DNA from: an uncultured Opitutales bacterium | GTDB lineage: Bacteria; Verrucomicrobiota; Verrucomicrobiia; Opitutales; Intestinicryptomonadaceae | Length of the DNA stretch: 32,000 bases | Direction of reading: 5' to 3' | Assembly: GCA_934613415.1 (NCBI GenBank) | Contig: CAKTSY010000003.1 | Span: forward strand, 120,001-152,000 | In this document: positions 11,990-25,819 of the stretch, piece after piece | Numbering within the stretch: the first letter of the stretch is position 1 | How the letters are laid out: each line of letters begins with the position of its first letter | Translations under genes and position numbers: made by a program | The notes under the pieces: generated by a model | Database searches by the model: none | Told to the model about the DNA's origin: nothing | The model's input: only the letters and a program-made list of their open reading frames with translations

Positions 11990-12069
11990 ATAATGATTTT
12001 TAAACTACAAATGAAATTATGCGCTTTGGCATTGAGAAGGCTACCAAAGTGCAAAATGAAAATATCGAA

Positions 12070-12465
12070 TTAACGTTTCGAGAATTGGAAACGCTTACGA
12101 GCACCGGGCTGTCCGGACTTCTTACGTTCCTTGGCACGACCGTCGCGGGTAATCAAACCGGCGGCTTTCAAAGCCTGACGCAACGAAGCGTCCATCTTTT
12201 CGAGAGCTCTTGCCAAGCCGTGGCTTATTGCGCCTGCCTGACCCATTGCGCCGCCGCCGTTTACTTTAATGTTGGCGTCTACCGAAGAGGATTTATCGGC
12301 AACAACCAAGGGGCGAGTTGCCAACATAAGCAACTTTTCGGTGTAGCAATATTCGTTGATGGGCTTTCCGTTTACCTTGATTTCGCCTTTGCCGTCGGAA
12401 AGGGCAACACGGGCTACAGAGGTCTTACGGCGTCCTACGCTTACAAATTCCTGTTTTTTTGCCAT
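12070..12465 (-). CDS. rpsI: 30S ribosomal protein S9
   Basis: This 131-aa protein has GRRKTSVARV and GGGAMGQAGAISHGLARAL, and ends in ARKRFQFSKR. Confidence 0.95.
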   Translation of the reverse strand: MAKKQEFVSVGRRKTSVARVALSDGKGEIKVNGKPINEYCYTEKLLMLATRPLVVADKSSSVDANIKVNGGGAMGQAGAISHGLARALEKMDASLRQALKAAGLITRDGRAKERKKSGQPGARKRFQFSKR

Positions 12466-12478
12466 GGTAATTTAAGAG

Positions 12479-12904
12479 TTAGAAATTAAAGGGCTGTGGG
12501 TTTTGAGCCGCGTGCGGATGTTCAGCACCTGCATATACATGCAATTTTGTGAGCATTGCGCTTGCAAGCTTGTTATTGGGCATCATGCCTTCTACGGCGT
12601 GCTTGATGAGGAAGGCGGGATTCTTTGCGCGATAGTCCGACAATTTAACGTAGCGTTCGCCGTTTACATAGCCGGTATAGTGCATATATTCTTTTCTGTC
12701 TTCCTTTTTGCCTGTAACGCGAATCTTTTCGGCGTTAATAACGATCACATGATCGCCGTTGTCCATATTGGGCGTATAAACCGCCTTGTGCCTGCCGCGC
12801 AAAACATTGGCGATTTTAACCGCCAAGCGACCGAGCACCTGATCTGCCGCGTCAACGACATACCACTGCTTATCTTTTTGTACTTTTGCTATTGTAGTTT
12901 TCAT
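12479..12904 (-). CDS. rplM: 50S ribosomal protein L13
   Basis: The sequence MKTTIAKVQKDKQWYVVDAADQVLGRLAVKIANVLRGRHKAVYTPNMDNGDHVIVINAEKI is canonical L13. I take the start at ATG 12904 rather than the track's longer upstream extension. Confidence 0.95.
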   Translation of the reverse strand: MKTTIAKVQKDKQWYVVDAADQVLGRLAVKIANVLRGRHKAVYTPNMDNGDHVIVINAEKIRVTGKKEDRKEYMHYTGYVNGERYVKLSDYRAKNPAFLIKHAVEGMMPNNKLASAMLTKLHVYAGAEHPHAAQNPQPFNF

Positions 12905-13124
12905 TATTGTAAGAAAAACAACCAATTTAGCCTAAAAGGAGCTTTCGTCAACATTTTTTTTCGAAAGACAAAAATTTGCGCCATATTTGCAAAGTAAAAA
13001 GAGGTATTCGCCATATATGTGTAAGTGTAGCGCATTTTTTGCGAAATGTATTTAGCAGAGAACATTTTTTGCTTGTAAAGAGTCTTTTTTGCCGATTGCA
13101 TTTATTGTATATTTATCTACTTAT

Positions 13125-14401: not shown

Positions 14402-14893
14402 ATGAAAAACCCAAACCCGCCCCTGCACATTGTGCTGCACAACCCGCAAATTCCGCAAAACACGGGCAACATTGGCAGAATGTGCTCTATGCTTGAAGCG
14501 CATTTGCACCTAATACACCCATTGGGCTTTACAATTACCGACACAAAATTAAAGCGCGCGGGAATGGACTATTGGAAAGAGCTGGACGTTTTCGACCACA
14601 ACTCGTGGGAAGAATACAAAGCCTCGGCAAACATACCGCCCCTTTCCAGAACCTGGCTGCTTACAACCAAAGCGGAAATGTCTTTGTGGGAGGCAGATTT
14701 TCAGTTTGGCGACGCTCTTGTTTTCGGCTCGGAAGACAGAGGCGCCCCCGACTATCTGCGCGAAGAGCTAAAGCCGCGTCGTATAAAGATTCCGCAATTT
14801 AACCCCCTGCTACGCTCGCTTAATTTGTCTACAAGCGCGGGCATTGCGGCCTACGAGGCAATGAGGCAAATTCAGCTAAAACTTAAAAAATAA
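14402..14893 (+). CDS. trmL: tRNA (cytidine/uridine-2'-O-)-methyltransferase TrmL (SpoU/TrmH family)
   Basis: LHIVLHNPQIPQNTGNIGRMC, LVFGSEDRGAP and the RSLNLSTSAGIAAYEA knot motif, together with a size of about 160 aa, fit TrmL. Confidence 0.85.
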   Translation: MKNPNPPLHIVLHNPQIPQNTGNIGRMCSMLEAHLHLIHPLGFTITDTKLKRAGMDYWKELDVFDHNSWEEYKASANIPPLSRTWLLTTKAEMSLWEADFQFGDALVFGSEDRGAPDYLREELKPRRIKIPQFNPLLRSLNLSTSAGIAAYEAMRQIQLKLKK

Positions 14894-14906
14894 AAATATT
14901 TTCGTG

Positions 14907-14935
14907 TTGACAAAGGAAAGTCTATGCACTTTAGT
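14907..14935 (+). promoter_or_regulatory. Candidate sigma70-type promoter for tRNA-Leu
   Basis: TTGACA (14907-14912) is followed by a 17-nt spacer and TTTAGT (14930-14935), ending about 18 nt before the tRNA 5' end. Confidence 0.35.
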
Positions 14936-14952: not shown

Positions 14953-15035
14953 GCTCGGGTGGCGGAATGGTAGACGCAGTAGACTCAAAATCTTCCGACT
15001 TTATGGTCATAAGGGTTCAAGTCCCTTCCCGAGTA
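14953..15035 (+). tRNA. tRNA-Leu (anticodon CAA), type II with long variable arm, no encoded CCA
   Basis: Folded by hand. The acceptor gctcggg/cccgagt has G1-U72. The D region GTGGCGGAATGGTAGACGC is almost identical to canonical bacterial tRNA-Leu. The anticodon loop is cTCAAaa with CAA at 14986-14988. The T arm is aaggg-ttcaagt-ccctt. Confidence 0.85.
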
Positions 15036-15044
15036 CTTAAAAAA

Positions 15045-15196: not shown

Positions 15197-15520
15197 TTAA
15201 TTCGCCGACAAATTTGGAACTAGGCTATCTAACGAAACGTCTTTTAAAAATTCCAAAGAATCTACTTTTACAACCGTTTTAAACCCCTTCTTTTCGGCAT
15301 ACATAAATATACAGCGCTGGAAAGACACTGGAGCGTAAATGCCCAACCCTTCCACCTTCACTGTGTCTTTAGAATAATCGAAAATAATATCCGACTGCTT
15401 TTTGCCGCCACCAATGCCATAGTTCGACGCCGAAAAGCGCACGGGCACTGGGTTTCCATAACGAAGCGATACCACCGCTTCAATTTTGTAGCTTTCGGTT
15501 GCGGCGGTTAACGACAACAT
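15197..15520 (-). CDS. Hypothetical protein, probable C-terminal part of the split gene above
   Basis: This 107-aa ORF has no signal peptide, unlike every neighbour. One extra A in the A6 run would fuse both ORFs into a protein of about 292 aa. Confidence 0.45.
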   Translation of the reverse strand: MLSLTAATESYKIEAVVSLRYGNPVPVRFSASNYGIGGGKKQSDIIFDYSKDTVKVEGLGIYAPVSFQRCIFMYAEKKGFKTVVKVDSLEFLKDVSLDSLVPNLSAN

Positions 15521-16074
15521 GTCGGCCTGCCGCTTTTTTCTATTATGGGAAATTTAAAATTGCCCTCAATGGCGTCTAAAACGCTTATATTTTTTAATCC
15601 CTCAAAAAATGTTATATAGTCTGCAAAAAGCAATTTGCCGAGGTAGAAATCTTGCAACGGGTAAATTGTAGAGTTTTCCAAAGGACGCGTTATAAGCACA
15701 TTGCCGTCTTCGATTCTGCCGTCGGAATTCTGCGTTTTATATCTAAATTCCTTTACCGTTTTGCCGTCGTATACAAAATCTACTTTTTGTATCATTTTGG
15801 CATTTTTGCCGCCGCCTGCCATACTCATTTGCAACGGATTAAATTTTATAATAAACTTGTTGTCCGCCAGCGAAAAATACGATTCTACCTGCGAAACATT
15901 CGGGCTTTCGGCGGGAGTGCCCTTTATGTCGGAAATATCATACATTTCAACTGTGCCCTTAAATTTTATTATGCCTAAATTCGGCAATTTTGCCCCTGCA
16001 AAAGCAGCTCCGGCAAAAGCAACAAATATAAGATTAAAAACAACAGTTCTTATAAAACCTAACTTCAACTTCAT
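15508..16074 (-). CDS. Exported hypothetical protein, N-terminal part of an apparently frameshift-split gene
   Basis: This 188-aa ORF has a signal-like N-terminus (MKLKLGFIRTVVFNLIFVAFAGAAFAGA). It ends 8 codons after an A6 run (minus strand; T6 at 15534-15539 on plus) and overlaps the next ORF by 13 nt. Confidence 0.5.
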   Translation of the reverse strand: MKLKLGFIRTVVFNLIFVAFAGAAFAGAKLPNLGIIKFKGTVEMYDISDIKGTPAESPNVSQVESYFSLADNKFIIKFNPLQMSMAGGGKNAKMIQKVDFVYDGKTVKEFRYKTQNSDGRIEDGNVLITRPLENSTIYPLQDFYLGKLLFADYITFFEGLKNISVLDAIEGNFKFPIIEKSGRPTCCR

Positions 16075-16100
16075 ATCGTCTTTCTTTTGTATCTTTCGGT

Positions 16101-16150
16101 AGAATAAATTTTAGATAAAATTCGGTCAATATTTTTGTAATATTTTTCGC
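16101..16150 (-). promoter_or_regulatory. Island promoter cassette, copy D
   Basis: On the minus strand: gcgAAAAATATTACAAAAATA-TTGACC (16129-16124), 17 nt, TATTCT (16106-16101). The -10 element ends 27 nt upstream of ATG 16074. Confidence 0.4.
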
Positions 16151-16197
16151 TTTGCCAAATTGCCGCGCATACAGATTGTGCGTGTTAAAGAACACTT

Positions 16198-17169
16198 CTA
16201 TTTGGACGTATGCGAGCCTGCCGGCATTTGTACTTTATATAGTTTTTCACTGTTTGCCGAAATAATTGTTTTTAAAACGTCTAAATCAACCTCACGGGGT
16301 TTGGTTGAAATTTCATACGAAACCAAAGCCCCTTGTCTATTGAATATATTTAAAAATCTTACCGAAAATTCCACACTTTTTACCTGCAACCAATCCAGGT
16401 CATTCTGTTTCATAACCAAAACAACATGAGAGAATAGAGATTTTGAAAGATAATCCGACACTTCCAAAATATCGCCGTCTTTATACACCCGCTCTCTATC
16501 GGGTCTATCGCACACCGAAAAGGCGCTGCCGCCATAGTAATATTGCCCGTTTGCCATAACGCACACATTTGTCATAAAATCGCAACATAAAGACGTTTGG
16601 TTGAACGTAAGAAGCTTCTTTTTGCTTTTGTTTATAAGTTTTATTTCTATTGCAAATTTATCTTTTTTTAAAGGCTGCATTTGCAAACTTATGCCGCGAA
16701 ATTCGTCGAACATATCGGTTTTGCCGGCAAACATATCGCTTTGGCAGTTTTCACCGTCGCGTTTTTTGCAAATTGCAAACACTAAATTGTTATCTTTATC
16801 AAGCAGCCTATACGATACACTGTTGTCGTGTTCGTTTATTTCAATTCGCTCATTTTCCGACACTACTGCCCTATTATTGCCGTTTTTTTGTTTTTCAAAA
16901 AACTCGGTTTTGCCGTTCGGCAAATGTTTCATTGTATACAGCACAACTCCATTAAACGTCTTTTTTGCCAATTCGCCTTTTTCGTTGTAGAGATATTCTT
17001 TTACATTGCATTTAGAGTCTACAACTTTTACTACCTCGTTTGGGTTGCCCTTTATTGTATATAAACAAGGCATAGCAAATGCGCCACACAAAACGCAGTT
17101 TGCGCAAAGCAGCGCTAAAAAAAGAAAAAAACGTTTTATACAAAAATTTATTTTTTTCAAATCCGCCAA
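16198..17169 (-). CDS. Exported Cys-rich hypothetical protein with N-terminal YD/MORN-variant-like repeat module
   Basis: There is no ATG before the hydrophobic segment, so a TTG start at 17169 or 17160 is implied ((M)KKINFCIKRFFLFLALLCANCVLCGAFA). Residues about 55-100 (NVKEYLYNEKGELAKKTFNGVVLYTMKHLPNGK) are about 50% identical to the C-terminus of the 22961-24544 protein. Confidence 0.55.
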   Translation of the reverse strand: MADLKKINFCIKRFFLFLALLCANCVLCGAFAMPCLYTIKGNPNEVVKVVDSKCNVKEYLYNEKGELAKKTFNGVVLYTMKHLPNGKTEFFEKQKNGNNRAVVSENERIEINEHDNSVSYRLLDKDNNLVFAICKKRDGENCQSDMFAGKTDMFDEFRGISLQMQPLKKDKFAIEIKLINKSKKKLLTFNQTSLCCDFMTNVCVMANGQYYYGGSAFSVCDRPDRERVYKDGDILEVSDYLSKSLFSHVVLVMKQNDLDWLQVKSVEFSVRFLNIFNRQGALVSYEISTKPREVDLDVLKTIISANSEKLYKVQMPAGSHTSK

Positions 17170-17175
17170 AGGTTA

Positions 17176-18165
17176 TTATTTCTTTGCGTTAACATTCTTT
17201 TCAAGCTTATCCAAAAAATCGCCTACAATATACGACTTGTCTTGTATCGAATCGCTTATTCTTGTGCCCTTTTCTATATTTACGGCAAACTCTTTTTTTA
17301 TCGCTTCGCCGTCAGTCGAATACTCTACAACTTCAAGTTTCTCACAAGACGTCTTTATTTGCTCGTATTCAGCCGAGGCCTTATCGGGATTTTTATAGGC
17401 AAAGTATCTGTTTATTTCAATTTGGCGCGGAATTTCAACTTCGCCTATTTTTGCGTAATCCAAATATTTTATTTCGCATTCTACGGGCATTGTGTCTACA
17501 ACCATACCGTCTTTCTCCAAACTTTTATTTAGCTGCAGCGAACTGATTTTGCCGTCTTTTATGCAAATATTGTAGTTTTCGAATACGTCTTTGCCCTTAG
17601 AACTATAGGTATGCACCTTAAAGAGTGCGTTTATAGTATCGCCGTTTTTTGTTAACGAAAGTTTGCCGTTTTTAAGCAAATCCTTAAAACCTACCCATGT
17701 GCTAAGTTGAGGGAACACGGGAATGCTTGTTAAATATTGCGTAAAAATAGGTTCTTCTAACTCATACGAAAAATCCTCTACAACGGCATATTTTAAATTT
17801 TTATAAAGATATAACGATTTCTTGCCGTTGGTATAATAAAAAATTTCGCTTTCTTTTTTAGAGCCTTGTGGCAATGCGCGCTTTAAATTTAAAACGCGTT
17901 CGCTACCGTTCGAAGCATAAGTTGCAAAACATTCGTTTTGCCTTAGCTTGGTTGGGTGTGCAAGCTCTTGCGCTATTGTGGCTTTGTCTATCTTTGCAAT
18001 TTCCAGCACCTTTGTTTTGTTAAATTCCTGAAGTTGTATTTTATATTTTACTATAAGCTCAGCCCTATCCAAAGCCTCCCACCCATTCAGCAAATTAAAT
18101 ATTTCCTGCGAATGTGCCACTGCGCAGGCAAACATAAGCACAACAATAAGATTTATTTTTAGCAT
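17176..18165 (-). CDS. Exported hypothetical protein (possibly LolA-like beta-rich fold)
   Basis: This 329-aa ORF has the signal peptide MLKINLIVVLMFACAVAHSQ. Its stop is 6 nt from the next start. I recognise no family motif; the fold suggestion is inference only. Confidence 0.6.
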   Translation of the reverse strand: MLKINLIVVLMFACAVAHSQEIFNLLNGWEALDRAELIVKYKIQLQEFNKTKVLEIAKIDKATIAQELAHPTKLRQNECFATYASNGSERVLNLKRALPQGSKKESEIFYYTNGKKSLYLYKNLKYAVVEDFSYELEEPIFTQYLTSIPVFPQLSTWVGFKDLLKNGKLSLTKNGDTINALFKVHTYSSKGKDVFENYNICIKDGKISSLQLNKSLEKDGMVVDTMPVECEIKYLDYAKIGEVEIPRQIEINRYFAYKNPDKASAEYEQIKTSCEKLEVVEYSTDGEAIKKEFAVNIEKGTRISDSIQDKSYIVGDFLDKLEKNVNAKK

Positions 18166-18188
18166 AATTTATCTGTTTTAAAATAGCC

Positions 18189-19160
18189 TTACATTGCCTT
18201 TGCACTACCGGCAATAGACAATTTCAAATCGTCGTCCGAAATCGGCACTACGTTAAACTTTTCAACTACAACAACGTTAAGTACGCAATACTCCGTATCC
18301 GAATAGGTTGTTATAGAGCAGATTACGCCGGGGTAAAACAGCATTTTGTCGGCCGCATATATTCTGCAAACGCAATCCACTATTTTGCTTTTAGGGTTTT
18401 GCGGGTAAAACGCCTCTACTGCGGAAATAAAAACTCTCTTGCCGTCTACGCTAAACATGGCGCGCGCGCAAGCGTCGAAACAGCGCAAAAGATTAAAACC
18501 GTCTTTTGTTTTTTCAATAGAAACACTTTGGGGCAAGATTTTTGCGGGGGTAATATACCTAAAAAACGGATTTAACAGGTACATATGTATAAAAGGGCTT
18601 TCAAAATATATTGCAGCATCTTCCGACAACGCTGCAAGAGAAAGCGGTTTAGTTTTTGCGTCGTATACGGAAAGAATGGAATCGACCACCGATACGGCGT
18701 CTTTGCCATTATTTTGCGTCTTTACATTGTTTTTAATTACTGTTTCGGACAGGAGAACTGATTTTTGGTTGTTGCCGCGCATAGAAAAATCTATTAGCGA
18801 CACAACCCCGTTTTTGCAAGACGCCTCAATTTCTCCAAGCTTTTGCCTTAATTGCGTTAATTTGCCATCATTTCGTTTGCATACAAGCGGCTCGTTTTTT
18901 ACGAAACCCAACAAAGCGTCGGCCTCGGCTTTTGGCAAAGTATATTCGAATTTTTCCACACGCATTGCAATGCCGATTTGCTTGGCATTGTAGTAGTTAA
19001 GGAGATTTTCCCGCAACAGCCCTACATTCGGTTCGCCGTCTATGTTTGGAAGAACAAAGTCTACCGCCGCGGCAGAAAACCCGCAAAACATAAAAGCAAA
19101 AGAAAATATATACGCCAAAAACATTCTATTTGCCGCGAAAAATGCACATCTTGCCCGCAT
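18189..19160 (-). CDS. Exported hypothetical protein (possibly LolA-like beta-rich fold)
   Basis: The ORF is open from GTG 19175. ATG 19160 gives MRARCAFFAANRMFLAYIFSFAFMFCGFSAAA, a plausible signal peptide. It is the first gene downstream of promoter cassette C. Confidence 0.55.
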   Translation of the reverse strand: MRARCAFFAANRMFLAYIFSFAFMFCGFSAAAVDFVLPNIDGEPNVGLLRENLLNYYNAKQIGIAMRVEKFEYTLPKAEADALLGFVKNEPLVCKRNDGKLTQLRQKLGEIEASCKNGVVSLIDFSMRGNNQKSVLLSETVIKNNVKTQNNGKDAVSVVDSILSVYDAKTKPLSLAALSEDAAIYFESPFIHMYLLNPFFRYITPAKILPQSVSIEKTKDGFNLLRCFDACARAMFSVDGKRVFISAVEAFYPQNPKSKIVDCVCRIYAADKMLFYPGVICSITTYSDTEYCVLNVVVVEKFNVVPISDDDLKLSIAGSAKAM

Positions 19161-19201
19161 TAACCCAAGTACCACAGTACCTTTCTTTCCTAACTGGTAT
19201 A

Positions 19202-19257
19202 AGAATAAGTTTTACGCATAACACAGTCAAGGCTTTTGTGATACTTTTATGTTTTCG
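19202..19257 (-). promoter_or_regulatory. Island promoter cassette, copy C
   Basis: On the minus strand: ACATAAAAGTATCACAAAAGCC-TTGACT (19230-19225), 17 nt (gtgttatgcgtaaaact), TATTCT (19207-19202). Confidence 0.45.
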
Positions 19258-19283
19258 CAAATACAGTTGGCATTTTGAGTGTT

Positions 19284-19326
19284 TTTACAAAAAGAAATGC
19301 CTTTTACCCGCAAAGGTAAAAGGCAT
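19284..19326 (-). terminator. Rho-independent terminator downstream of the DUF1573-like gene
   Basis: A perfect 11-bp stem (atgccttttac at 19297-19307, gtaaaaggcat at 19316-19326) with an 8-nt loop is followed on the minus strand by tttctttttgt. Confidence 0.65.
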
Positions 19327-19523
19327 GATGGTGTACTATTATAAAAATTTGGGGTCGGCGTTGAGAGCTCTGAACATTTTAGGCTTATTTGGCAAGACCT
19401 ATAACTCCCAACACCAAACTTGATTTGTATGCTTACATATTTTTGTTATTATGCAAGACAAATTTTTTATTTTTAATATTGCAAGCTTTATAAAGTTTGT
19501 ATAATATACAATAATCTAAACAC

Positions 19524-20165
19524 TTACTTTACCAAGGCATGCACGGCAAGCGTTTTGCTTAGGCCGTTGTCGTTTTTTAAGACTATTTTTACAGTGTCGC
19601 GCAAAACCGTGTTTGTGCTTAGCGGAGTTATTGCAATGTTGTGTTTATTGCCGCGGCTTGATGTTTTTACGGCAAACTTTGCATTATTGCAAGATACAGA
19701 TTCTATTTTCCAACTTGGATCTGATATTGTAAGAACCGCATTTTTTGGAGTGATTTTTTCGTTAGTGCGCCAATAAACCAAGCGTGGGTGCAGCTCTACC
19801 TCGTTTTTTATTTTAATTTTAAGGGTCAACTTAATTTGCGGTTGCGAAATATCGTCGGTAAAAACAATTATTTCGTTTTCCTGAACGCCCTTTTTGTCGC
19901 CGCCATAAAAAGTTCCGTTTATTTGCCCGGTTTCGTTTGTAGCATAAATGCTTTTATCTAATTGCGGGATTGTGCACGAACAGCTAGATTTTACATTTAA
20001 TATTTTAACGGTTTTAGAACCGTTGTTTTTAAATTTAAACACAAATTTATAAGGCTCGTAATTAGGAGCAATCTCGTCTTCTATAGAAAGCCTTTCGAAC
20101 ACAATTTCGCCAACGGCAAAATTGCAGCACAAGAACATAGCAACTACATTAAATATACGTTTCAT
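19524..20165 (-). CDS. DUF1573-like exported protein
   Basis: After a signal-like N-terminus, FKFKNNGSKTVKILNVKSSCSCTIPQLDKSIYATNETGQINGTF matches the DUF1573 pattern (F.F.N.G...L.I..V..SCGCT) as I remember it. Confidence 0.6.
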   Translation of the reverse strand: MKRIFNVVAMFLCCNFAVGEIVFERLSIEDEIAPNYEPYKFVFKFKNNGSKTVKILNVKSSCSCTIPQLDKSIYATNETGQINGTFYGGDKKGVQENEIIVFTDDISQPQIKLTLKIKIKNEVELHPRLVYWRTNEKITPKNAVLTISDPSWKIESVSCNNAKFAVKTSSRGNKHNIAITPLSTNTVLRDTVKIVLKNDNGLSKTLAVHALVK

Positions 20166-20430
20166 ATAAATTTATTTTGAAAAGTTTTGTAAATATTACC
20201 GTAGCGCAAGCGGCATTACGAATGGCAAAAGCCTGCAGTTGAAATCGTTTTTACTACAACTTCCACACAAATTACATGTTTCCAGCGAATTTTGCATTAT
20301 GAGACAAGCATTAGTATATATTTCTGTTCTTAGTTCATTTCGCAATGCAATATCTATATCTGAAACTATATAAATATTAATTCAACTACAAAACAAATTC
20401 CAAATCGGCAAGCTTATGAACTCGTCAATC

Positions 20431-21450
20431 TCATAGCTGCGGCATTATTTTATAACTTCGTAGGACATCATCAAAAAATGATTCAAAAAACACATTCGCG
20501 ATTTGCATATTTGAATTGGCATCTTTTACAATGAAAATGTACTTAAAGTAGACTTCATTTTCTCTCGGGCATACCTGCTCTATGAGAACATATAGAGGAT
20601 CCATAGGAATAATTCCAACAACCCTAGTATCATTTGATTCTCGCCTAGATTTATATTTAGCTCCGATTTCAAATACTTTCATTTTCAATAGGTCATTAAC
20701 TTTGCGCCTTGAACTTTCAGTGTAAAATGATGTTACCAAATCTACATCTCCAGAACTTCGTGCTTGAACAAATGCATCATAAAAACCTGATACATCTGAT
20801 TGTTTTTTAAAAAAATTCATCTTACTAAAATCGAAAATGGTAGAAAATTTAAGTATCGGAGCTTTTGTTGCATTATCACATCGCCCGAAGCCATATGTCT
20901 TGTAGTCTTGGGACTTATAAAAAGCCAACAAAGAATACGAACATAGAGACTCTAGGGCATTATTGATAGATACAACTCTTTTATATGTTCCATCAATATC
21001 CTTTTTAAATGCAAAATATGACACCAAACTTTCCCCTGTTTTAGAATCGTTCACTTTGTAAAAAACTTTGAATACATCATTAAATTGAAATACATCAAGT
21101 AAACGCACAGATTTAAAATCGATATTTTGCGATGAAAACTTTTTTAATATTCTTTGAGTCGAAAAAGAATCGTATCCAAGCGACATGTTTTCTATTAAAG
21201 TCCTATCTTTTTTTTGCAACGCCTCAAAAAAATCGTTTATTCTCTTTGAAGGCAAATCATCTGCCAAGAACTTATTTTTAATGTCTACAATGTCCGAATT
21301 TACAGGAAATCGTTTTATGGCAAAATGCGCATTTGTCTTTACCGTGCTTCCATCATCTAAATCAATATATACAGGTACCAAGGAAGCAACATCTGCATAT
21401 ATACAAGCTGTATAGACAACAAATAAAACTGTCGATAGAATTTTTTTCAT
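20431..21450 (-). CDS. Exported hypothetical protein with two tandem NTF2/SnoaL-like halves
   Basis: This 339-aa ORF has the signal peptide MKKILSTVLFVVYTACIYA. Two segments open alike (DFFEALQKKDRTLIENMS; GFYDAFVQARSSGDVDLVTSFY) and end in beta-rich stretches (SYFAFKKDIDGTYKRV; FKYIFIVKDANSNMQIANV). Confidence 0.55.
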   Translation of the reverse strand: MKKILSTVLFVVYTACIYADVASLVPVYIDLDDGSTVKTNAHFAIKRFPVNSDIVDIKNKFLADDLPSKRINDFFEALQKKDRTLIENMSLGYDSFSTQRILKKFSSQNIDFKSVRLLDVFQFNDVFKVFYKVNDSKTGESLVSYFAFKKDIDGTYKRVVSINNALESLCSYSLLAFYKSQDYKTYGFGRCDNATKAPILKFSTIFDFSKMNFFKKQSDVSGFYDAFVQARSSGDVDLVTSFYTESSRRKVNDLLKMKVFEIGAKYKSRRESNDTRVVGIIPMDPLYVLIEQVCPRENEVYFKYIFIVKDANSNMQIANVFFESFFDDVLRSYKIMPQL

Positions 21451-21651
21451 AGTTAGTCGATTATAGGATATGAATACGAAAATGTATAATTATATATTTT
21501 TAGCGAAGCGGTATATACCAACCTTGATACAGAAAATGCATTCCCCGAGAGTATATTGTATGTATCTTTATTGCCTACATCTGCATTTGCCACGACCATA
21601 ATAGATAGTGCTCCTGGCGTTATTGAAAAGTCTCCAAAACATATATCACAA

Positions 21652-21711
21652 TCAATAAAGTCGCAAGCGTTTCATAAACGCAAACATTATTTTTATAATA
21701 TTAGTTCTCAT
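21652..21711 (-). pseudogene. Decayed copy of the small signal-peptide ORF (paralogue of 24546-24701)
   Basis: It has the same SD (aagaggtg) and start context as the intact copy. It reads MRTNIIKIMFAFMKRLRLY*. A 1-nt deletion relative to the intact copy (atgataacg versus atgaaacg) shifts the frame, and no Cys-containing mature part follows. Confidence 0.4.
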
Positions 21712-21795
21712 AAGAACACCTCTTTTGTAGTTGTAGGCAAAATAAAAATTTCGCATAACACAGTCAAGATTTTTGTAATATTTTTATATTTGATG
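21657..21795. repeat. 139-bp repeat, copy 1 (promoter + SD + signal-peptide coding start)
   Basis: Manual alignment to 24646-24785 shows about a dozen substitutions and one 1-nt indel over about 140 nt. The flanks on both sides are unrelated. Confidence 0.85.
21739..21795 (-). promoter_or_regulatory. Island promoter cassette, copy A
   Basis: On the minus strand: ATAAAAATATTACAAAAATC-TTGACT (21767-21762), 17 nt (gtgttatgcgaaatttt), TATTTT (21744-21739). Confidence 0.45.
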
Positions 21796-21884
21796 CAAAA
21801 GACATTATGGCATATATTGCAGGCTATAAAACCAAAAAAACTTTTTCAGACAATTTTTGCGCAATATCATTGCAAAGAAGTGCG

Positions 21885-22460
21885 CTACGGATTTTCGCTT
21901 GTTGGCACATAGCTTTTTGCAAGAGCAAGCCACTGTTCTAAAACTTCGCCCTCAAGAACGATTGGCTTTGAATATACCGTCAACTTATTTGGATCTAAGC
22001 CTCTAAATTTCACAAAATTGTTTAAACTGGCCGTTATTTTTATTGTTTTCACTTCTTTGGGTTTTGGATTTAGGATAACATTTTTTATAACCTCCAAAAA
22101 ACTTTCGACCAGTCCATAGACCAAATATTGGCTGTTTAGGCTATCATTATACGAATATCCGGAGCCGCACATTATATATTTTGGCAACCCGCACCCGCAA
22201 ACTATCCCTCCAATACTTCCGTCTTCATATATCACATCAGCATAAATCAATATATCCATAGAATTAACCGAAGCATTATTGCACGAAATTTCGCGCAAAT
22301 CCTTGGCATTATCTACAAAAAGCTTAAACGGCGCACGCAATTTTGGTTCTACAACCAAGCGCATTTTAAAGTTGTCGGCAAAAAACTTTAAGTCGCCTGC
22401 CGTGTCTGCCACGGCACACAACCCCAACATAAAAGATATACATATTATTAGCTTTTTCAT
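21885..22460 (-). CDS. Exported hypothetical protein
   Basis: This 191-aa ORF has the signal peptide MKKLIICISFMLGLCAVA. Its start is 1 nt after the upstream stop. It contains GGIVCGCGLPKYIMCGSGYSY. I recognise no family. Confidence 0.55.
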   Translation of the reverse strand: MKKLIICISFMLGLCAVADTAGDLKFFADNFKMRLVVEPKLRAPFKLFVDNAKDLREISCNNASVNSMDILIYADVIYEDGSIGGIVCGCGLPKYIMCGSGYSYNDSLNSQYLVYGLVESFLEVIKNVILNPKPKEVKTIKITASLNNFVKFRGLDPNKLTVYSKPIVLEGEVLEQWLALAKSYVPTSENP

Positions 22461-22461
22461 T

Positions 22462-22974
22462 TCACTTTAAGCATTTGCCGTTGCAATTCTGCTCATGATC
22501 CCATCCTTCACATGCACATGTAATATGTCCAGAAAACTGCACATCTTTGTTCCATTGTTTAATAACATTGTAGTGCCCTTGTTCATGCGTTACGATTTCT
22601 CCGTGCACTCTATTCCATGTGCCCCTACATCCACAACATTTTATTTTACCTGTATTATACTCAACCCATTCTGGAATAATATATCTTTGAAATCTGACTT
22701 CAACTTTAAAGGAAGCAAGGTCTGTGGCACAAGCTGCGAAACAAGAATCACCGTCAACCCCGCTATCTACTATCTTGTGTCTTATTACAATATTATTATC
22801 ATCATTATACGCAGTAAACCCAGCAAAATGACGTCCGTCCTTATCAATTATTTTCCATGTAGGCATTCCCGGTTTTGGAATTTTATTGTAATTCTCGCCG
22901 TATATATTTTCAGCGTTCAAAATGTATGCCTCTAACATAGCCATTAACGCAAAGAATATTTTAATTTTCTTCAT
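22462..22974 (-). CDS. Small exported Cys-rich HExxH protein, putative Zn-metallopeptidase (DUF922-like)
   Basis: This 170-aa ORF has a signal-like N-terminus, the HExxH motif in GEIVTHEQGHYNVI, and nine Cys in the mature part (CC, CxC, CGC). The layout FKVEVRFQRYIIPEW...TWNRVHGEIVTHEQGH resembles the DUF922 predicted secreted Zn-protease pattern from memory. Its start overlaps the upstream gene by 14 nt. Confidence 0.5.
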   Translation of the reverse strand: MKKIKIFFALMAMLEAYILNAENIYGENYNKIPKPGMPTWKIIDKDGRHFAGFTAYNDDNNIVIRHKIVDSGVDGDSCFAACATDLASFKVEVRFQRYIIPEWVEYNTGKIKCCGCRGTWNRVHGEIVTHEQGHYNVIKQWNKDVQFSGHITCACEGWDHEQNCNGKCLK

Positions 22975-24544
22975 AATATTTTATAACCCTGTTTTCATTT
23001 TCATCATAAATTACGCAAAACATTTTCGTATCGGTGGCAACCCTCGTTCTTACTAATGATTTCCCATCGGCAAAAATAATTTTTTGTGTCATCTCGCCAT
23101 TGCTTTCGTCTTTTTTTAAAATCTCTATTTTGCCGTCGGGCAAATGCTTCATTTCGTATATCGTTTCGCCGTTTAGCACTGTTTTTACTTTTTCAAACTT
23201 TTCGTTATAAAAAAACTCCCTTACATTCCCCTCCGAATCGCTTTCTCTTATTATGTCGCCGTTGGCGTTAAATAGGCGTGTAAGTTGCGTTTTCCATTCC
23301 TTATCGTTTGCAGACATCTTTTCGATTTTCCTTACTTTCATAGACGCTTTGCCCGGGGCTCCTATATACATTGTCTGTGTCTTTTCGCCTGTAGATGGGT
23401 TTTGCGTTATTTTTATCGCCTGTCTTACGCTATAGTCCCATATCTCGGCATAACGGTTTTCCGGCTTTTTGTAGGCTATGGTTACTTCCATTGTGCTGTT
23501 GTTGCGCCTGCGGTCTGCCTTAAATTCGCTATTATTATATTCTGGGCTATCTTTATCGTATAATGGGTTTCTTACTGCATATTCGCCGCCGCTGTCGGAT
23601 ATTATCATTCCAGTGGTTGCGTCCCACTCTATGTAGCCAGTAAGCCCACTGTTTTTATTAACTTGTTCAACCCTATTGGCTATAACTTTTAGCCCTACGC
23701 TTTCCCTTTCGTCTTTTGCAAGGCACTGGCGGTTTTTCTTTTCGTCGCAGGCTTTATAAGTATATTCAAGGCATTCGCCGTCTGTAAACTTTATAGACGA
23801 TACCAATTTGCTAAGCCCAATTACCCCGTTTTGCCCTATGGTTTTAAATTCTTTATAAAAAATTTGAATCGACTTTTTGTCTTTTATAAATCTTATTTCC
23901 GACAACAACCCTTCGCTATTATATGCAAATTCTACCGCTATTGCCCGTTTTGTTTGGTTGTATATTGCCGACGGAAACCCGTTGTTTTTATACGACACCC
24001 TAAAAACGTCGCCTCCCTCGCCAACGCAAAATTCCGCCAAACAACCGTTTTTAAATATAAACTTGTTTTTCGGATCTCGCACATTCGAGATATCTATTTG
24101 CTCGTTCTTGGCTATGTTCAGTTTCCAAGAGGCGTTTGTGTTTAATATATAGCTTTCCTTATAACCTCTTTCTGTTGTGGGAAGTTTGTTAAATGTATAT
24201 GTTCCATGGTTGGGGCTTTTCCATAAATACCTGCTGTTCGACAGCTTTACCGCCTTTGTTTCTATAAATGCTATACTCCAATATTGCCCCATATATTTGG
24301 GCTCTAAATATGGCGCCGTGCAAAACTTAAAAAACATATCTGCCCTACGCCCCTTGCCTAAATCTAGTTCGTAAAAAATTTTGTCTATTCGGGCAAATCC
24401 GTTGCTGTCGGCATTGCCTATGGGCGACTGCCTTGGCGAACGCACAAACTGAGCATTTGCCTGCAATGCAAACAACGCGCAAAATGCAAACACAACTTTT
24501 GCAGCATATATTGCAAAAACAAATACTTTGCGTAGCGAGTCCAT
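22961..24544 (-). CDS. Exported YD-repeat-like protein
   Basis: The likely start is ATG 24544 (MDSLRKVFVFAIYAAKVVFAFCALFALQANA), 1 nt after the stop of the small ORF; the track's longer extension overlaps that ORF. Degenerate YD-type repeats are visible: FRVSYKNNGFPSAIY, VEFAYNSEGLLSEIRF, CLEYTYKACDE, GYIEWDATTGMIISD, REFFYNEKFEKVKTV. Confidence 0.6.
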   Translation of the reverse strand: MDSLRKVFVFAIYAAKVVFAFCALFALQANAQFVRSPRQSPIGNADSNGFARIDKIFYELDLGKGRRADMFFKFCTAPYLEPKYMGQYWSIAFIETKAVKLSNSRYLWKSPNHGTYTFNKLPTTERGYKESYILNTNASWKLNIAKNEQIDISNVRDPKNKFIFKNGCLAEFCVGEGGDVFRVSYKNNGFPSAIYNQTKRAIAVEFAYNSEGLLSEIRFIKDKKSIQIFYKEFKTIGQNGVIGLSKLVSSIKFTDGECLEYTYKACDEKKNRQCLAKDERESVGLKVIANRVEQVNKNSGLTGYIEWDATTGMIISDSGGEYAVRNPLYDKDSPEYNNSEFKADRRRNNSTMEVTIAYKKPENRYAEIWDYSVRQAIKITQNPSTGEKTQTMYIGAPGKASMKVRKIEKMSANDKEWKTQLTRLFNANGDIIRESDSEGNVREFFYNEKFEKVKTVLNGETIYEMKHLPDGKIEILKKDESNGEMTQKIIFADGKSLVRTRVATDTKMFCVIYDENENRVIKYYEEN

Positions 24545-24545
24545 A

Positions 24546-24701
24546 TTATTCGCCCAACTCTTGCGACATATTATCTTCGCCAGGGTTGCCGCTGCAACCC
24601 TTGTCTCCAGGTTCGCAACCTGCGCAATCGTCTGCCAACGCATTAAAAGACGCAAGCGTTATCATAAGCGCAAATATTATTTTTATAATCTTAGTTTTCA
24701 T
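24546..24701 (-). CDS. Small secreted prepeptide (51 aa) with acidic Cys-containing mature region
   Basis: ATG 24701 is preceded by AAGAGGTG with a 6-nt spacer. The product is MKTKIIKIIFALMITLASFNALA|DDCAGCEPGDKGCSGNPGEDNMSQELGE. The stop TAA lies 1 nt before the next ATG. It sits about 20 nt downstream of promoter cassette B. Confidence 0.5.
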   Translation of the reverse strand: MKTKIIKIIFALMITLASFNALADDCAGCEPGDKGCSGNPGEDNMSQELGE

Positions 24702-24785
24702 AACAACACCTCTTTTGTAGTTGTAGGTAGAATAAAAATCCCGCATAACACAGTCAAGATTTTTGTGATATTTTTATATTTTATG
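24646..24785. repeat. 140-bp repeat, copy 2 (promoter + SD + signal-peptide coding start)
   Basis: It aligns to 21657-21795 at roughly 90% identity by manual alignment. Confidence 0.85.
24729..24785 (-). promoter_or_regulatory. Island promoter cassette, copy B
   Basis: On the minus strand: ATAAAAATATCACAAAAATC-TTGACT (24757-24752), 17 nt (gtgttatgcgggatttt), TATTCT (24734-24729). Confidence 0.5.
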
Positions 24786-24932
24786 AATTTTTTATAAACC
24801 AATAAATTGATTGTTTATATATTATACATTCTTATTTCATTGCAAATATAGCAAAAGAAATGCAGTAATAATTACCCGAAATTTACGCAATAATATATTG
24901 ACGACAAAAAATTGCCAATAAACTGTTCATAT

Positions 24933-25394
24933 ATGGTTTTTGCAAATTTAATTTGGCCTGCAATGTACATAAACGAAGGCTTTTCGGCATTATGGGTGGT
25001 TGCTTTTAGCGTAGTTATAGAAGCATATTTTTTCGACAAAGCGTTTTGCTGCAACTCGCTAAAAAAGTCGCTTACATTGTCGCTTATTGCAAATGCTACC
25101 ACCGCCATTTTGGGCATAACAAAAATTACGCCCTTTATTGCGCTAATACCCACTTTGCTGCACGATATGCTTATTAGGGCAACTTTTGCCCCGGCGGGCT
25201 GGCTTGCGGCAATTTTATTTTACCTATTTTTTAATTCCGCAATAGAATATTTTGCAGCCGGGGCATTTGCAAAATATGTTTTATATAAAAAAAGCGCGCA
25301 CCATTTTGCAAAACACCCCTATCTTTTGATTGTAGTTGCAAACTGCATAACATTTGCGCTTGCGGCCGTAGAAATAATAAAAAACCGAATATAG
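24933..25394 (+). CDS. Small integral membrane protein, unknown function
   Basis: This 153-aa product from ATG 24933 (the track starts at TTG 24912) has four to five hydrophobic segments. It is divergent from the island operon. I recognise no family. Confidence 0.5.
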   Translation: MVFANLIWPAMYINEGFSALWVVAFSVVIEAYFFDKAFCCNSLKKSLTLSLIANATTAILGITKITPFIALIPTLLHDMLIRATFAPAGWLAAILFYLFFNSAIEYFAAGAFAKYVLYKKSAHHFAKHPYLLIVVANCITFALAAVEIIKNRI

Positions 25395-25472: not shown

Positions 25473-25548
25473 TGGTGGAGCCGATGAGGTTCGAACTCAC
25501 GATCTCCAAAATGCGAATCTGGCGCTCTTCCAACTGAGCTACGGCCCC
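25473..25548 (-). tRNA. tRNA-Ala (anticodon CGC), CCA encoded
   Basis: The reverse complement is GGGGCCGTAGCTCAGTTGGAAGAGCGCCAGATTCGCATTTTGGAGATCGTGAGTTCGAACCTCATCGGCTCCACCA. It has a 7-bp acceptor stem with the G3-U70 Ala identity pair and the anticodon loop TTCGCAT. Confidence 0.9.
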
Positions 25549-25592
25549 ATTGAAGATTAAGACGAACCCTAATTCCGCCTTAAAAAAAATTA

Positions 25593-25666
25593 TCGGGCCG
25601 CCGAGGATCGAACTCGGGACCTCTTACACCCCATGCAAGCGCGCTACCAGACTGCGCTACGGCCCG
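25593..25666 (-). tRNA. tRNA-Pro (anticodon GGG)
   Basis: The reverse complement is CGGGCCGTAGCGCAGTCTGGTAGCGCGCTTGCATGGGGTGTAAGAGGTCCCGAGTTCGATCCTCGGCGGCCCGA. C1-G72 is typical of bacterial tRNA-Pro. The anticodon loop is ATGGGGT, and the cloverleaf adds up to 74 nt. Confidence 0.9.
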
Positions 25667-25819
25667 TAATTTTTATCCGACCTATACTGACTATTTTGCT
25701 TTATTATGCAAGCGAAAAGTTGAATTTTTTTATTTTTATGCGCAGTTTTGAATTTTTGAGCAAGACTAACTTCTTTTAAAACAGGCAAATACTGCAATTT
25801 GCGCACAAAAAACAGCCCC

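Follow-up and report, generated by a model that had tools for sequence, protein, structure and literature searches.

The stretch of DNA analyzed here (32,000 nt; contig CAKTSY010000003.1, positions 120,001 to 152,000 of the forward strand; hereafter the window) originates from an uncultured Opitutales bacterium and contains, at about 15.07-25.4 kb, an island in which a short promoter-like cassette occurs four times. The island is bordered by tRNA genes on both sides (Table 1) and has a guanine-cytosine (GC) content of 31-40%, compared with 45-50% in the flanks. The latter carry housekeeping genes (purL, rplM-rpsI, smpB, a SpoU methylase gene, glgP, a rhomboid protease gene, prc and exbBD-tonB), and exact copies of GlgP were found in human gut metagenomes, including Hadza samples. 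Proteins that cluster with GlgP, PurL and SmpB at 90% identity or more bear the name 'Opitutales bacterium' in NCBI. All island genes lie on the minus strand and encode proteins with signal-peptide-like N-termini. Among the island proteins no Pfam or NCBIfam families were found besides DUF1573 (p213) and a sub-threshold DUF922 match (p170), and Pfam scans of the proteins of the window revealed no regulator, integrase or transposase.

Genes and cassettes of the island

A sequence-only reading of this DNA had proposed that one promoter-like module heads every multi-gene unit of the island. The gene arrangement bears this out, as each of the four copies leads a co-directional run of genes. The first genes after cassettes A, B and D are mutually unrelated and not paralogous, so that the module is independent of the coding sequence; the sole similarity among the unit genes is a 54-amino-acid (aa) YD (tyrosine-aspartate) module shared by p323 and p527. 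A whole-gene duplication that carried the promoter along was thus ruled out for A, B and D and holds true for C and D only. Behind cassette C lies a remnant of a p51-type small-peptide gene, 19 codons long and frameshifted (21652-21711). For the 48-aa open reading frame (ORF) after C, an origin as remnant of a 221-aa gene of contig L025 (related contigs and loci are referred to by such numbers) was rejected, since no similarity was found. Homologues of p339 occur at 58% identity in L025 and L043. The p213 protein also matches the NCBIfam OS_HP2 (seleno)protein domain below threshold (E-value 1.8e-9; 37.8 bits against a cut-off of 100), and DUF1573 genes are present in every related island.

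In unit D, p51 is a small secreted cysteine-rich (Cys-rich) peptide with the conserved C-terminus M(S/P)xELGE; it is always encoded directly upstream of a YD-repeat protein, and its mature region is hypervariable between alleles. Judging from the junction TAAtATG, in which the ATG of p527 begins 1 nt after the p51 stop codon, the two genes are translationally coupled. The 96 homologue clusters of p527 are all unannotated. An AlphaFold2 model built on 38 homologues reached a predicted local distance difference test score (pLDDT) of 82.6, and the top 45 matches of a Foldseek search of the PDB with this model were Rhs, teneurin or toxin complex (Tc) BC YD shells (probability 1.0, E-values down to 6e-12), with TM-scores of 0.2-0.37, which are low because the protein is short. 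Weak matches to PF05593 (RHS_repeat) were obtained for 16 of the 38 homologues, and the profile match to PDB entry 8qja is also weak. According to the model, p527 is a YD/Rhs-fold protein and, with respect to its 527 aa and the low TM-scores, at most a partial shell. Fold and RHS_repeat matches together characterize the island as a YD-repeat (Rhs-like) polymorphic locus.

Next to the island, and divergent from cassette D, p160 (24912-25394, plus strand) encodes a multi-pass membrane protein of no known family, which adjoins the island also in L042 (92% aa identity), L046, L047 and L048. An extra Melibiase (GH27/36-type) gene is located between tRNA-Ala/Pro and p160 in the close strains L046 (13051-15204) and L047 (13051-15204) and is absent from the window; the tRNA-adjacent site is therefore variable in more than one way.

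Table 1 Positions of the cassettes, units, promoters and border features in the window, and of p51-like genes in relatives.
Feature	Coordinates	Strand	Details
rplM promoter	12924-12951		TTGACG-N16-TAAATT
Promoter-like site at rhomboid gene			TTGACA-N16-TATAAA
tRNA-Leu promoter	~14885-14935	plus	AAAAAATAAAAATAT-N7-TTGACA-N17-TTTAGT
tRNA-Leu(CAA)	14953..15036	plus	one island border
Unit A	15197..16074	minus	p188, p107
Cassette A	16069..16186	minus	pattern match 16101-16129; -35 TTGACC 16124-16129; -10 TATTCT 16101-16106; p188 ATG 16072-16074
Unit B	16198..19175	minus	p328, p329, p323
Paralogous 54-aa YD module in p323	16879-17037
Cassette B	19171..19285	minus	pattern match 19202-19230; -35 TTGACT 19225-19230; -10 TATTCT 19202-19207; p328 GTG start 19173-19175
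Intrinsic terminator	19297..19326	minus	12-13 bp stem and T-run; 66 nt upstream of cassette B -35
p213 (DUF1573)	19524-20165	minus	stands alone; sole unit without cassette
Unit C		minus	p51 remnant; 48-aa ORF; p339 (20431..21450; secreted, no known family)
Cassette C	21706..21824	minus	pattern match 21739-21767; -35 TTGACT 21762-21767; -10 TATTTT 21739-21744; ATG 21709-21711
Unit D	21885..24701	minus	p51 24546-24701; p527 22961-24544; p170 22462-22974; p191 21885-22460
3' box, C-terminal YD-repeat module in p527	23064..23503	minus	100% identical to L049; 90-98% to L025
Cassette D	24696..24810	minus	pattern match 24729-24757; A/T block 24758-24781; -35 TTGACT 24752-24757; 17-nt spacer; -10 TATTCT 24729-24734; leader with GAGGTG ribosome-binding site 24702-24728; p51 ATG 24699-24701
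tRNA-Pro(GGG) and tRNA-Ala(CGC)	25473..25666	minus	other island border
p51-like peptide gene, L027	9849-9998
p51-like peptide gene, L033	5200-5355

The four copies are named by the coordinate of their -35 element on the minus strand (A, 16129; B, 19230; C, 21767; D, 24757). A search of the window with TTGACY-N17-TATTYT returned exactly these four sites, all on the minus strand, which agrees with the coordinates, hexamers and exact 17-nt spacer given in the sequence-only reading. By chance 0.05 ± 0.22 matches are expected and none of 100 shuffles reached four; furthermore, the upstream block ATAAAAATATCACAAAAATCTTGAC was found in three copies at no more than three mismatches with none expected. 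A chance origin of the four cassettes was ruled out by both results. Independent of the pattern, a repeat search grouped the four copies as one 72-nt family of 64-72% identity and paired C with D over 124 nt at 91% identity. No further copy was detected in the window by a position weight matrix (PWM) or by nhmmer.

According to the alignment, the copies are homologous over about 80-120 nt, beginning about 25 nt before the -35 element and reaching the start codon. This stretch opens with the A/T-rich block AAAAATAT(C/T)ACAAAA, which is more diverged and still alignable in A and degenerate in B (AAAAGTATCACAAAAGCC), the copy at 19230 being the one with the degenerate motif that had been noticed before. 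The spacer opens with GTGTTATGCG in B, C and D, as previously read, and the -10 hexamer is TATT(C/T)T. From this hexamer to the start codon the leader measures 26-27 nt in all copies, a tighter range than the 20-35 nt first estimated, and bears the ribosome-binding site ACAAAAGA(G/A)(G/A). Between C and D the homology runs on into the first ~15 codons of the signal peptide. With respect to known RNA elements or riboswitches in the leader, no Rfam matches besides tRNAs were obtained in the window, with sub-threshold noise near B only.

Between p213 and cassette B a candidate small RNA was noticed (19297-19440, minus strand; also L042 5812-5970 and L023 13520-13680), in which a promoter-like CTTGCATAATAA..., similar to the promoter of tRNA-Pro (25683-25729), is accompanied by a hairpin of 14 bp and a strong intrinsic terminator. 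Conservation of the candidate exceeds 90% in the two other loci, compared with only 40-84% identity of the neighboring DUF1573 protein; no compensatory changes and no Rfam family match were found for it. Pairing of an island-encoded small RNA with the cassette leader was considered and rejected, as a duplex-energy test gave no enrichment, its output also looking unreliable.

Putative promoter signals and the upstream block

For the analysis of conservation, 11 canonical copies from the window, L023, L025, L026, L038 and L042 were compared, which fall into about five effectively independent cassette types. The majority-base fraction was 0.97 for the -35 and 0.97 for the -10 hexamer, and 0.74 for the spacer. 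Both hexamers and the 17-nt spacer length were kept in all 11 copies, with ten distinct spacer sequences among them. Conserved hexamers at fixed spacing around a variable spacer sequence are the footprint of a promoter. Orientation and distance to a start codon with ribosome-binding site were likewise constant across the aligned copies. Each cassette is most likely an ordinary, strong sigma-70-type promoter, and transcription would start about 7 nt past the -10 element, near 24722, 21732, 19195 and 16094.

The surrounding DNA points in the same direction. TTGAC was counted 15 times in the window (complement GTCAA included) versus 47.8 ± 7.2 expected and is thus strongly avoided; eight of the 15 sites lie upstream of genes in the correct orientation, namely at the four cassettes, tRNA-Leu, rplM, the rhomboid gene and p160. 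A functional -35 signal would be expected to be avoided elsewhere and employed at gene starts. The avoidance is consistent with selection against spurious -35 elements. A generic promoter scanner was uninformative on the window (37 sites versus 36.9 expected, and 18 versus 19.3).

The rplM and rpsI genes lie on the minus strand at 12070-12925 (Pfam E-values about 1e-44). Two ORFs on the plus strand (12019-12489 and 12503-12997), although longer, are spurious. Since the listed TTG start of rplM (12925) overlaps the gene's own promoter, the true start is probably the ATG near 12905.

With the -35 hexamer set at positions -35 to -30, the upstream block consists of A-tracts at -38 to -42 and -49 to -53, which are 11 bp apart and enclose TAT(C/T)AC. 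It is the most conserved part of the cassette and persists where the core promoter has been replaced. The sequence-only reading had left open whether this block is an UP element or is bound by a dedicated regulator. Blocks rich in A immediately before the -35 element were also found at the tRNA-Leu promoter (AAAAAATAAAAATAT 7 nt upstream of the hexamer; A-rich block example AATAAAAATAT), at the tRNA-Pro promoter (ATAAAAATAAAAAAAT) and at the rplM promoter (AAAAAAAA, directly before the -35 element), which favors a generic UP-like function. Accordingly the first option fits, and for the second no regulator gene was found in the window. We regard the block as a likely UP-like element, which would be contacted by the alpha subunit, and rate this above a dedicated regulator site.

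It is nevertheless possible, if rather doubtful, that TAT[C/T]AC[A/T]AAAA serves a dedicated transcription factor, encoded elsewhere, as operator or activator site; the four units, along with related ones at other loci, would then be one regulon. Such a view does not conflict with the promoter reading and departs from it only in the role of the upstream block. TAT(C/T)AC(A/T), with several non-A/T positions, is invariant in 14 of 14 clade-1 copies, and the block is kept next to different cores, i.e. the type-2 cores described below (L042a, L046-D) and the partial cassettes of L025, L026 and L049. A metagenome scan with a pattern restricted to -35, -10 and ribosome-binding site returned four true family members (L038, L040, L042 and L043), all of which carry the block, plus four chance matches without it. 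Furthermore, C and D contain an imperfect 17-nt inverted repeat centered on the -35 element. This repeat is, however, not conserved in A, B or the relatives, and the distant clade described below lacks the CAC core and keeps the A-tract alone. The distance from TATCAC to the -35 element, identical according to the earlier reading, varies between 7 and 9 nt, thus by up to 2 nt, across relatives. Similar A-rich blocks are seen at housekeeping promoters of this DNA, recombination alone could keep the block identical, and neither the window nor the island contains a gene for a regulator or DNA-binding protein. The claim that the island is a single regulon therefore goes beyond these results. A marbox-type (MarA/SoxS) reading of the block was discarded by eye owing to too many mismatches.

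A more specific version, which we consider unlikely, takes the block as the target of a dedicated regulator, for instance one of the AraC family, that co-ordinates an undescribed verrucomicrobial system over at least two chromosomal loci, the cassette doubling as homology arm. An AraC-family gene adjoins the main locus in L023 and L045, which is a lead only. If this version were true, the system would comprise the Cys-rich 'ELGE' peptides, short YD-shell proteins, DUF1573 proteins and an esterase-Wzy_C-rhodanese-MauE operon, and newly acquired variable units would come pre-wired into the regulon.

Related cassettes and exchange of units

Besides the metagenome scan, which supplied an orthologue of cassette A (L038), cassettes were found on contigs with p527 homologues: two copies in L023, two and a partial one in L025, and one and a partial one in L026. 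In a distant clade (L027, L028 and L030) the cassette has the form TTGACA-N18-TATTCT, preceded by an A-rich block and followed by a ribosome-binding site, little else being alignable, and always precedes a p51-like peptide gene and a p5xx gene. A strict pattern including the upstream block gave 16 single matches in unrelated taxa among 185,579 species-representative genomes and none in the source lineage; the 16 look like chance or ordinary promoters. The source lineage is probably unmatched because fragmentary metagenome-assembled genomes (MAGs) lose these islands, and consequently this negative says little on the source genome.

The earlier reading had not seen the cassette outside the island. 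This holds within the window and fails beyond it, since a 120-nt stretch identical to D lies at a different locus in L049, a related assembly, and related cassettes exist in other species; the cassette is, judging from these sequences, probably not restricted to the island. The L049/L025-type locus co-occurs with the glgP locus of the window in sample ERZ27287391 (L006 and L050), and the same co-occurrence was observed in co-assembly SAMEA104315426 (L038 and L042 with L040 and L043). The source genome thus probably has further cassette copies at a second locus.

Partial cassettes, in which the block and TTGACA are joined to another downstream half, are located in L025 (9539-9577), L026 (4796-4822) and L049 (9939-9977). 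The conserved esterase-Wzy_C-rhodanese-MauE operon behind them has the order alpha/beta-hydrolase, 356-aa gene, Wzy_C, rhodanese, MauE/DoxX, 127-aa gene and ~640-aa gene. Its ATG follows just ~29 nt after the -35 element, so that the mRNA may be leaderless or the start mis-called.

Comparison of individual copies unveiled a mosaic structure. Between D of the window and L025a, identity is ~40-58% upstream, rises to 93-97% in core and leader and 89% in the first 45 coding nt, falls to ~59% (51% aa) in the rest of p51 and p527, and returns to 90-98% in the C-terminal YD module. L046 (a 526-kb contig) is 97-98.5% identical to the window in flanks and island and keeps B and C, B being unchanged. 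Position D of L046 shares with the window the upstream block and TTGAC as well as the ATG and signal peptide, and the ~52 nt between them are completely different, forming a type-2 core of TTGACA-N17-TATTGT followed by a ribosome-binding site. As a type-2 core was found at position D also in L042 and L048 (spacer 1 nt shorter) and in L047, whose contig ends inside it, type 2 is probably ancestral at this position. The D core of the window would then probably have been gained by gene conversion from C, in line with their 91% identity over 124 nt, or from an L049-like copy.

In L049 (a 590-kb scaffold) the D unit of the window occurs in another context, with a 661-aa gene, other genes and the esterase-Wzy_C-rhodanese-MauE operon. 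The homology starts sharply at 24781, which is the upstream edge of the cassette, and ends at ~23064. Thereby, L049 2241-2360 is 100% identical to 24662-24781 of the window (120 nt); identity varies between 62 and 100% through p51 and p527 and is again 100% over 23064-23503. Outside this YD box, p527 is about 50-60% identical to L025. L049 and L025 differ in the unit between cassette and box and are 96.8% identical from the box onward. From these comparisons the YD box looks like a 3' recombination box, that is, the 3' edge of the exchangeable unit.

Further rearrangements were observed in other loci. In L042 the upstream flank of cassette B, together with the terminator, runs into a unit of D type, and p160 (at the identity given above) has as its neighbor a unit with a p527 homologue of just 42% identity. 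The mature p51 peptide is the same in L045, where it follows another signal peptide and no cassette is present. In addition, contigs of independent assemblies end at or within ~50-300 nt after the cassette (L004, L006, L023, L038, L045, L047 and L048). Judging from the mosaic alignments, much of the copy-to-copy identity is due to recombination or gene conversion and not to regulatory constraint alone. The comparisons indicate that the cassette bounds exchangeable expression units on their 5' side and is in turn mosaic, with three sub-blocks that can be swapped.

With breakpoints on the cassette edges, a second conserved box at the 3' side of the variable region and assemblies breaking at the cassette, one may ask whether the cassette is mainly a recombination homology box that mediates unit exchange, its promoter hexamers being incidental. 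We consider this improbable, since conservation is focused on the hexamers, the 17-nt spacing and the ribosome-binding site instead of being even, orientation and start-codon distance are fixed, TTGAC is otherwise avoided in the DNA of the window, and the type-2 core, best seen in L046, differs in sequence yet again presents a -35/-10 pair at N17 and a ribosome-binding site. A phase-variable (invertible) promoter or a mobile-element or integron-type cassette end, which the variable, tRNA-flanked, low-GC island with its repeated promoter modules might bring to mind, is highly improbable, because the four copies have no flanking inverted repeats in common, no recombinase, integrase or transposase was found in the window or any related locus, all copies point one way in every assembly examined, and the repeat, located at the 5' end, has the promoter within it.

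We therefore consider it probable that the sites are housekeeping sigma-70-type promoters with a short leader and, at the same time, the portable recombining 5' arm of exchangeable units. According to this proposal, an A-tract UP-like block at about -38 to -57 would precede the -35 element TTGACY, followed by a 17-bp spacer, the -10 element TATTCT, a transcription start ~7 nt downstream, and an unstructured 5' untranslated region of ~20 nt with an A/G-rich ribosome-binding site. The module would begin every multi-gene transcription unit of a low-GC, tRNA-flanked island for secreted proteins, whose units may be co-expressed. Three sub-blocks would be separately swappable: the upstream block with the -35 element; the spacer, -10 element and leader; and the signal-peptide codons. 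The copies would resemble each other through a common ancestral module and constraint at promoter and ribosome-binding-site positions, and homologous recombination among copies, among loci and among strains would in addition repeatedly homogenize and exchange them, with the cassette acting as 5' homology arm and the conserved YD module of p527 as 3' arm.

Several points weigh against this proposal. The -10 element TATTCT fits four of six consensus positions, and the invariance of TAT(C/T)AC(A/T) is more sequence-specific than a plain UP element needs. Recombination inflates conservation, so that the footprint comes down to the about five effectively independent cassette types. A restriction to islands is judged from only ~60 kb of non-island Opitutales DNA, a small sample in which no cassette was found, and that the L049-type locus and the window belong to the same genome is probable on the basis of co-occurrence alone.

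Comparison with known systems and significance

E. coli rrnB P1 is an example of a sigma-70 promoter with an UP element. The cassette resembles this type in its near-consensus -35 element, 17-bp spacer, TAnnnT -10 element and phased A-tracts. It differs in that its block has an invariant TAT(C/T)AC core, which is not required by the UP consensus, and in being known from sequence alone.

The best architectural analogue would be the conserved 5' DNA of the erp loci of Borrelia burgdorferi. There, a conserved promoter/operator region ('upstream homology box') precedes diverse Erp lipoprotein genes on cp32 prophage plasmids, the operator-binding proteins BpaB, BpuR and EbfC have been identified, cross-talk of the operator-binding proteins gives co-expression, and the gene family is associated with recombination (PMC9112904). 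In analogy to these loci, several polymorphic operons for secreted or surface proteins have a conserved promoter, upstream region and leader with N-terminal codons in common. In contrast, the sequences are not homologous, the island lies on the chromosome between tRNA genes and has no phage genes, no regulator was found, and the genes downstream of cassettes A, B and D are not one family.

With Rhs/YD loci (the 'recombination hot spot' of enterobacteria, Rhs cores of type VI secretion systems (T6SS), teneurins, Tc BC) the island has the YD fold, the conserved boxes flanking hypervariable segments and the difference of units between strains in common. Its p527, however, is short (about 500 aa) and has a small Cys-rich peptide as partner, and a recombining box is located at the 5' promoter end, not just inside the core; no toxin tip, T6SS or Tc partner was found for p527. 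The invertible promoters of Bacteroides capsular polysaccharide loci are similar in that several loci of a gut bacterium have a similar promoter module. Lacking flanking inverted repeats and an invertase, and with a single orientation, the cassettes are not members of this class. Searches of the literature for work on gut verrucomicrobial promoters or islands of this type found nothing.

Promoters of Verrucomicrobiota, especially of uncultured gut Opitutales, are essentially unmapped. Taken together with the promoters of the tRNA genes and rplM and with TTGAC avoidance, the cassettes provide a first sequence-based picture of them, with a TTGACA-type -35 element, a spacer of 16-18 nt, a TAnnnT -10 element and A-tract upstream elements. 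Furthermore, the secreted YD-repeat proteins are encoded in a hypervariable island, and the cassette delimits its exchangeable units, which explains why short-read assemblies and MAGs break there; such islands are probably under-represented or mis-joined in MAGs. Its nhmmer profile or pattern is a simple probe for finding such units. Should there be a dedicated regulator, the island would offer a tractable way into an uncharacterized system of surface or secreted proteins in a human gut lineage.

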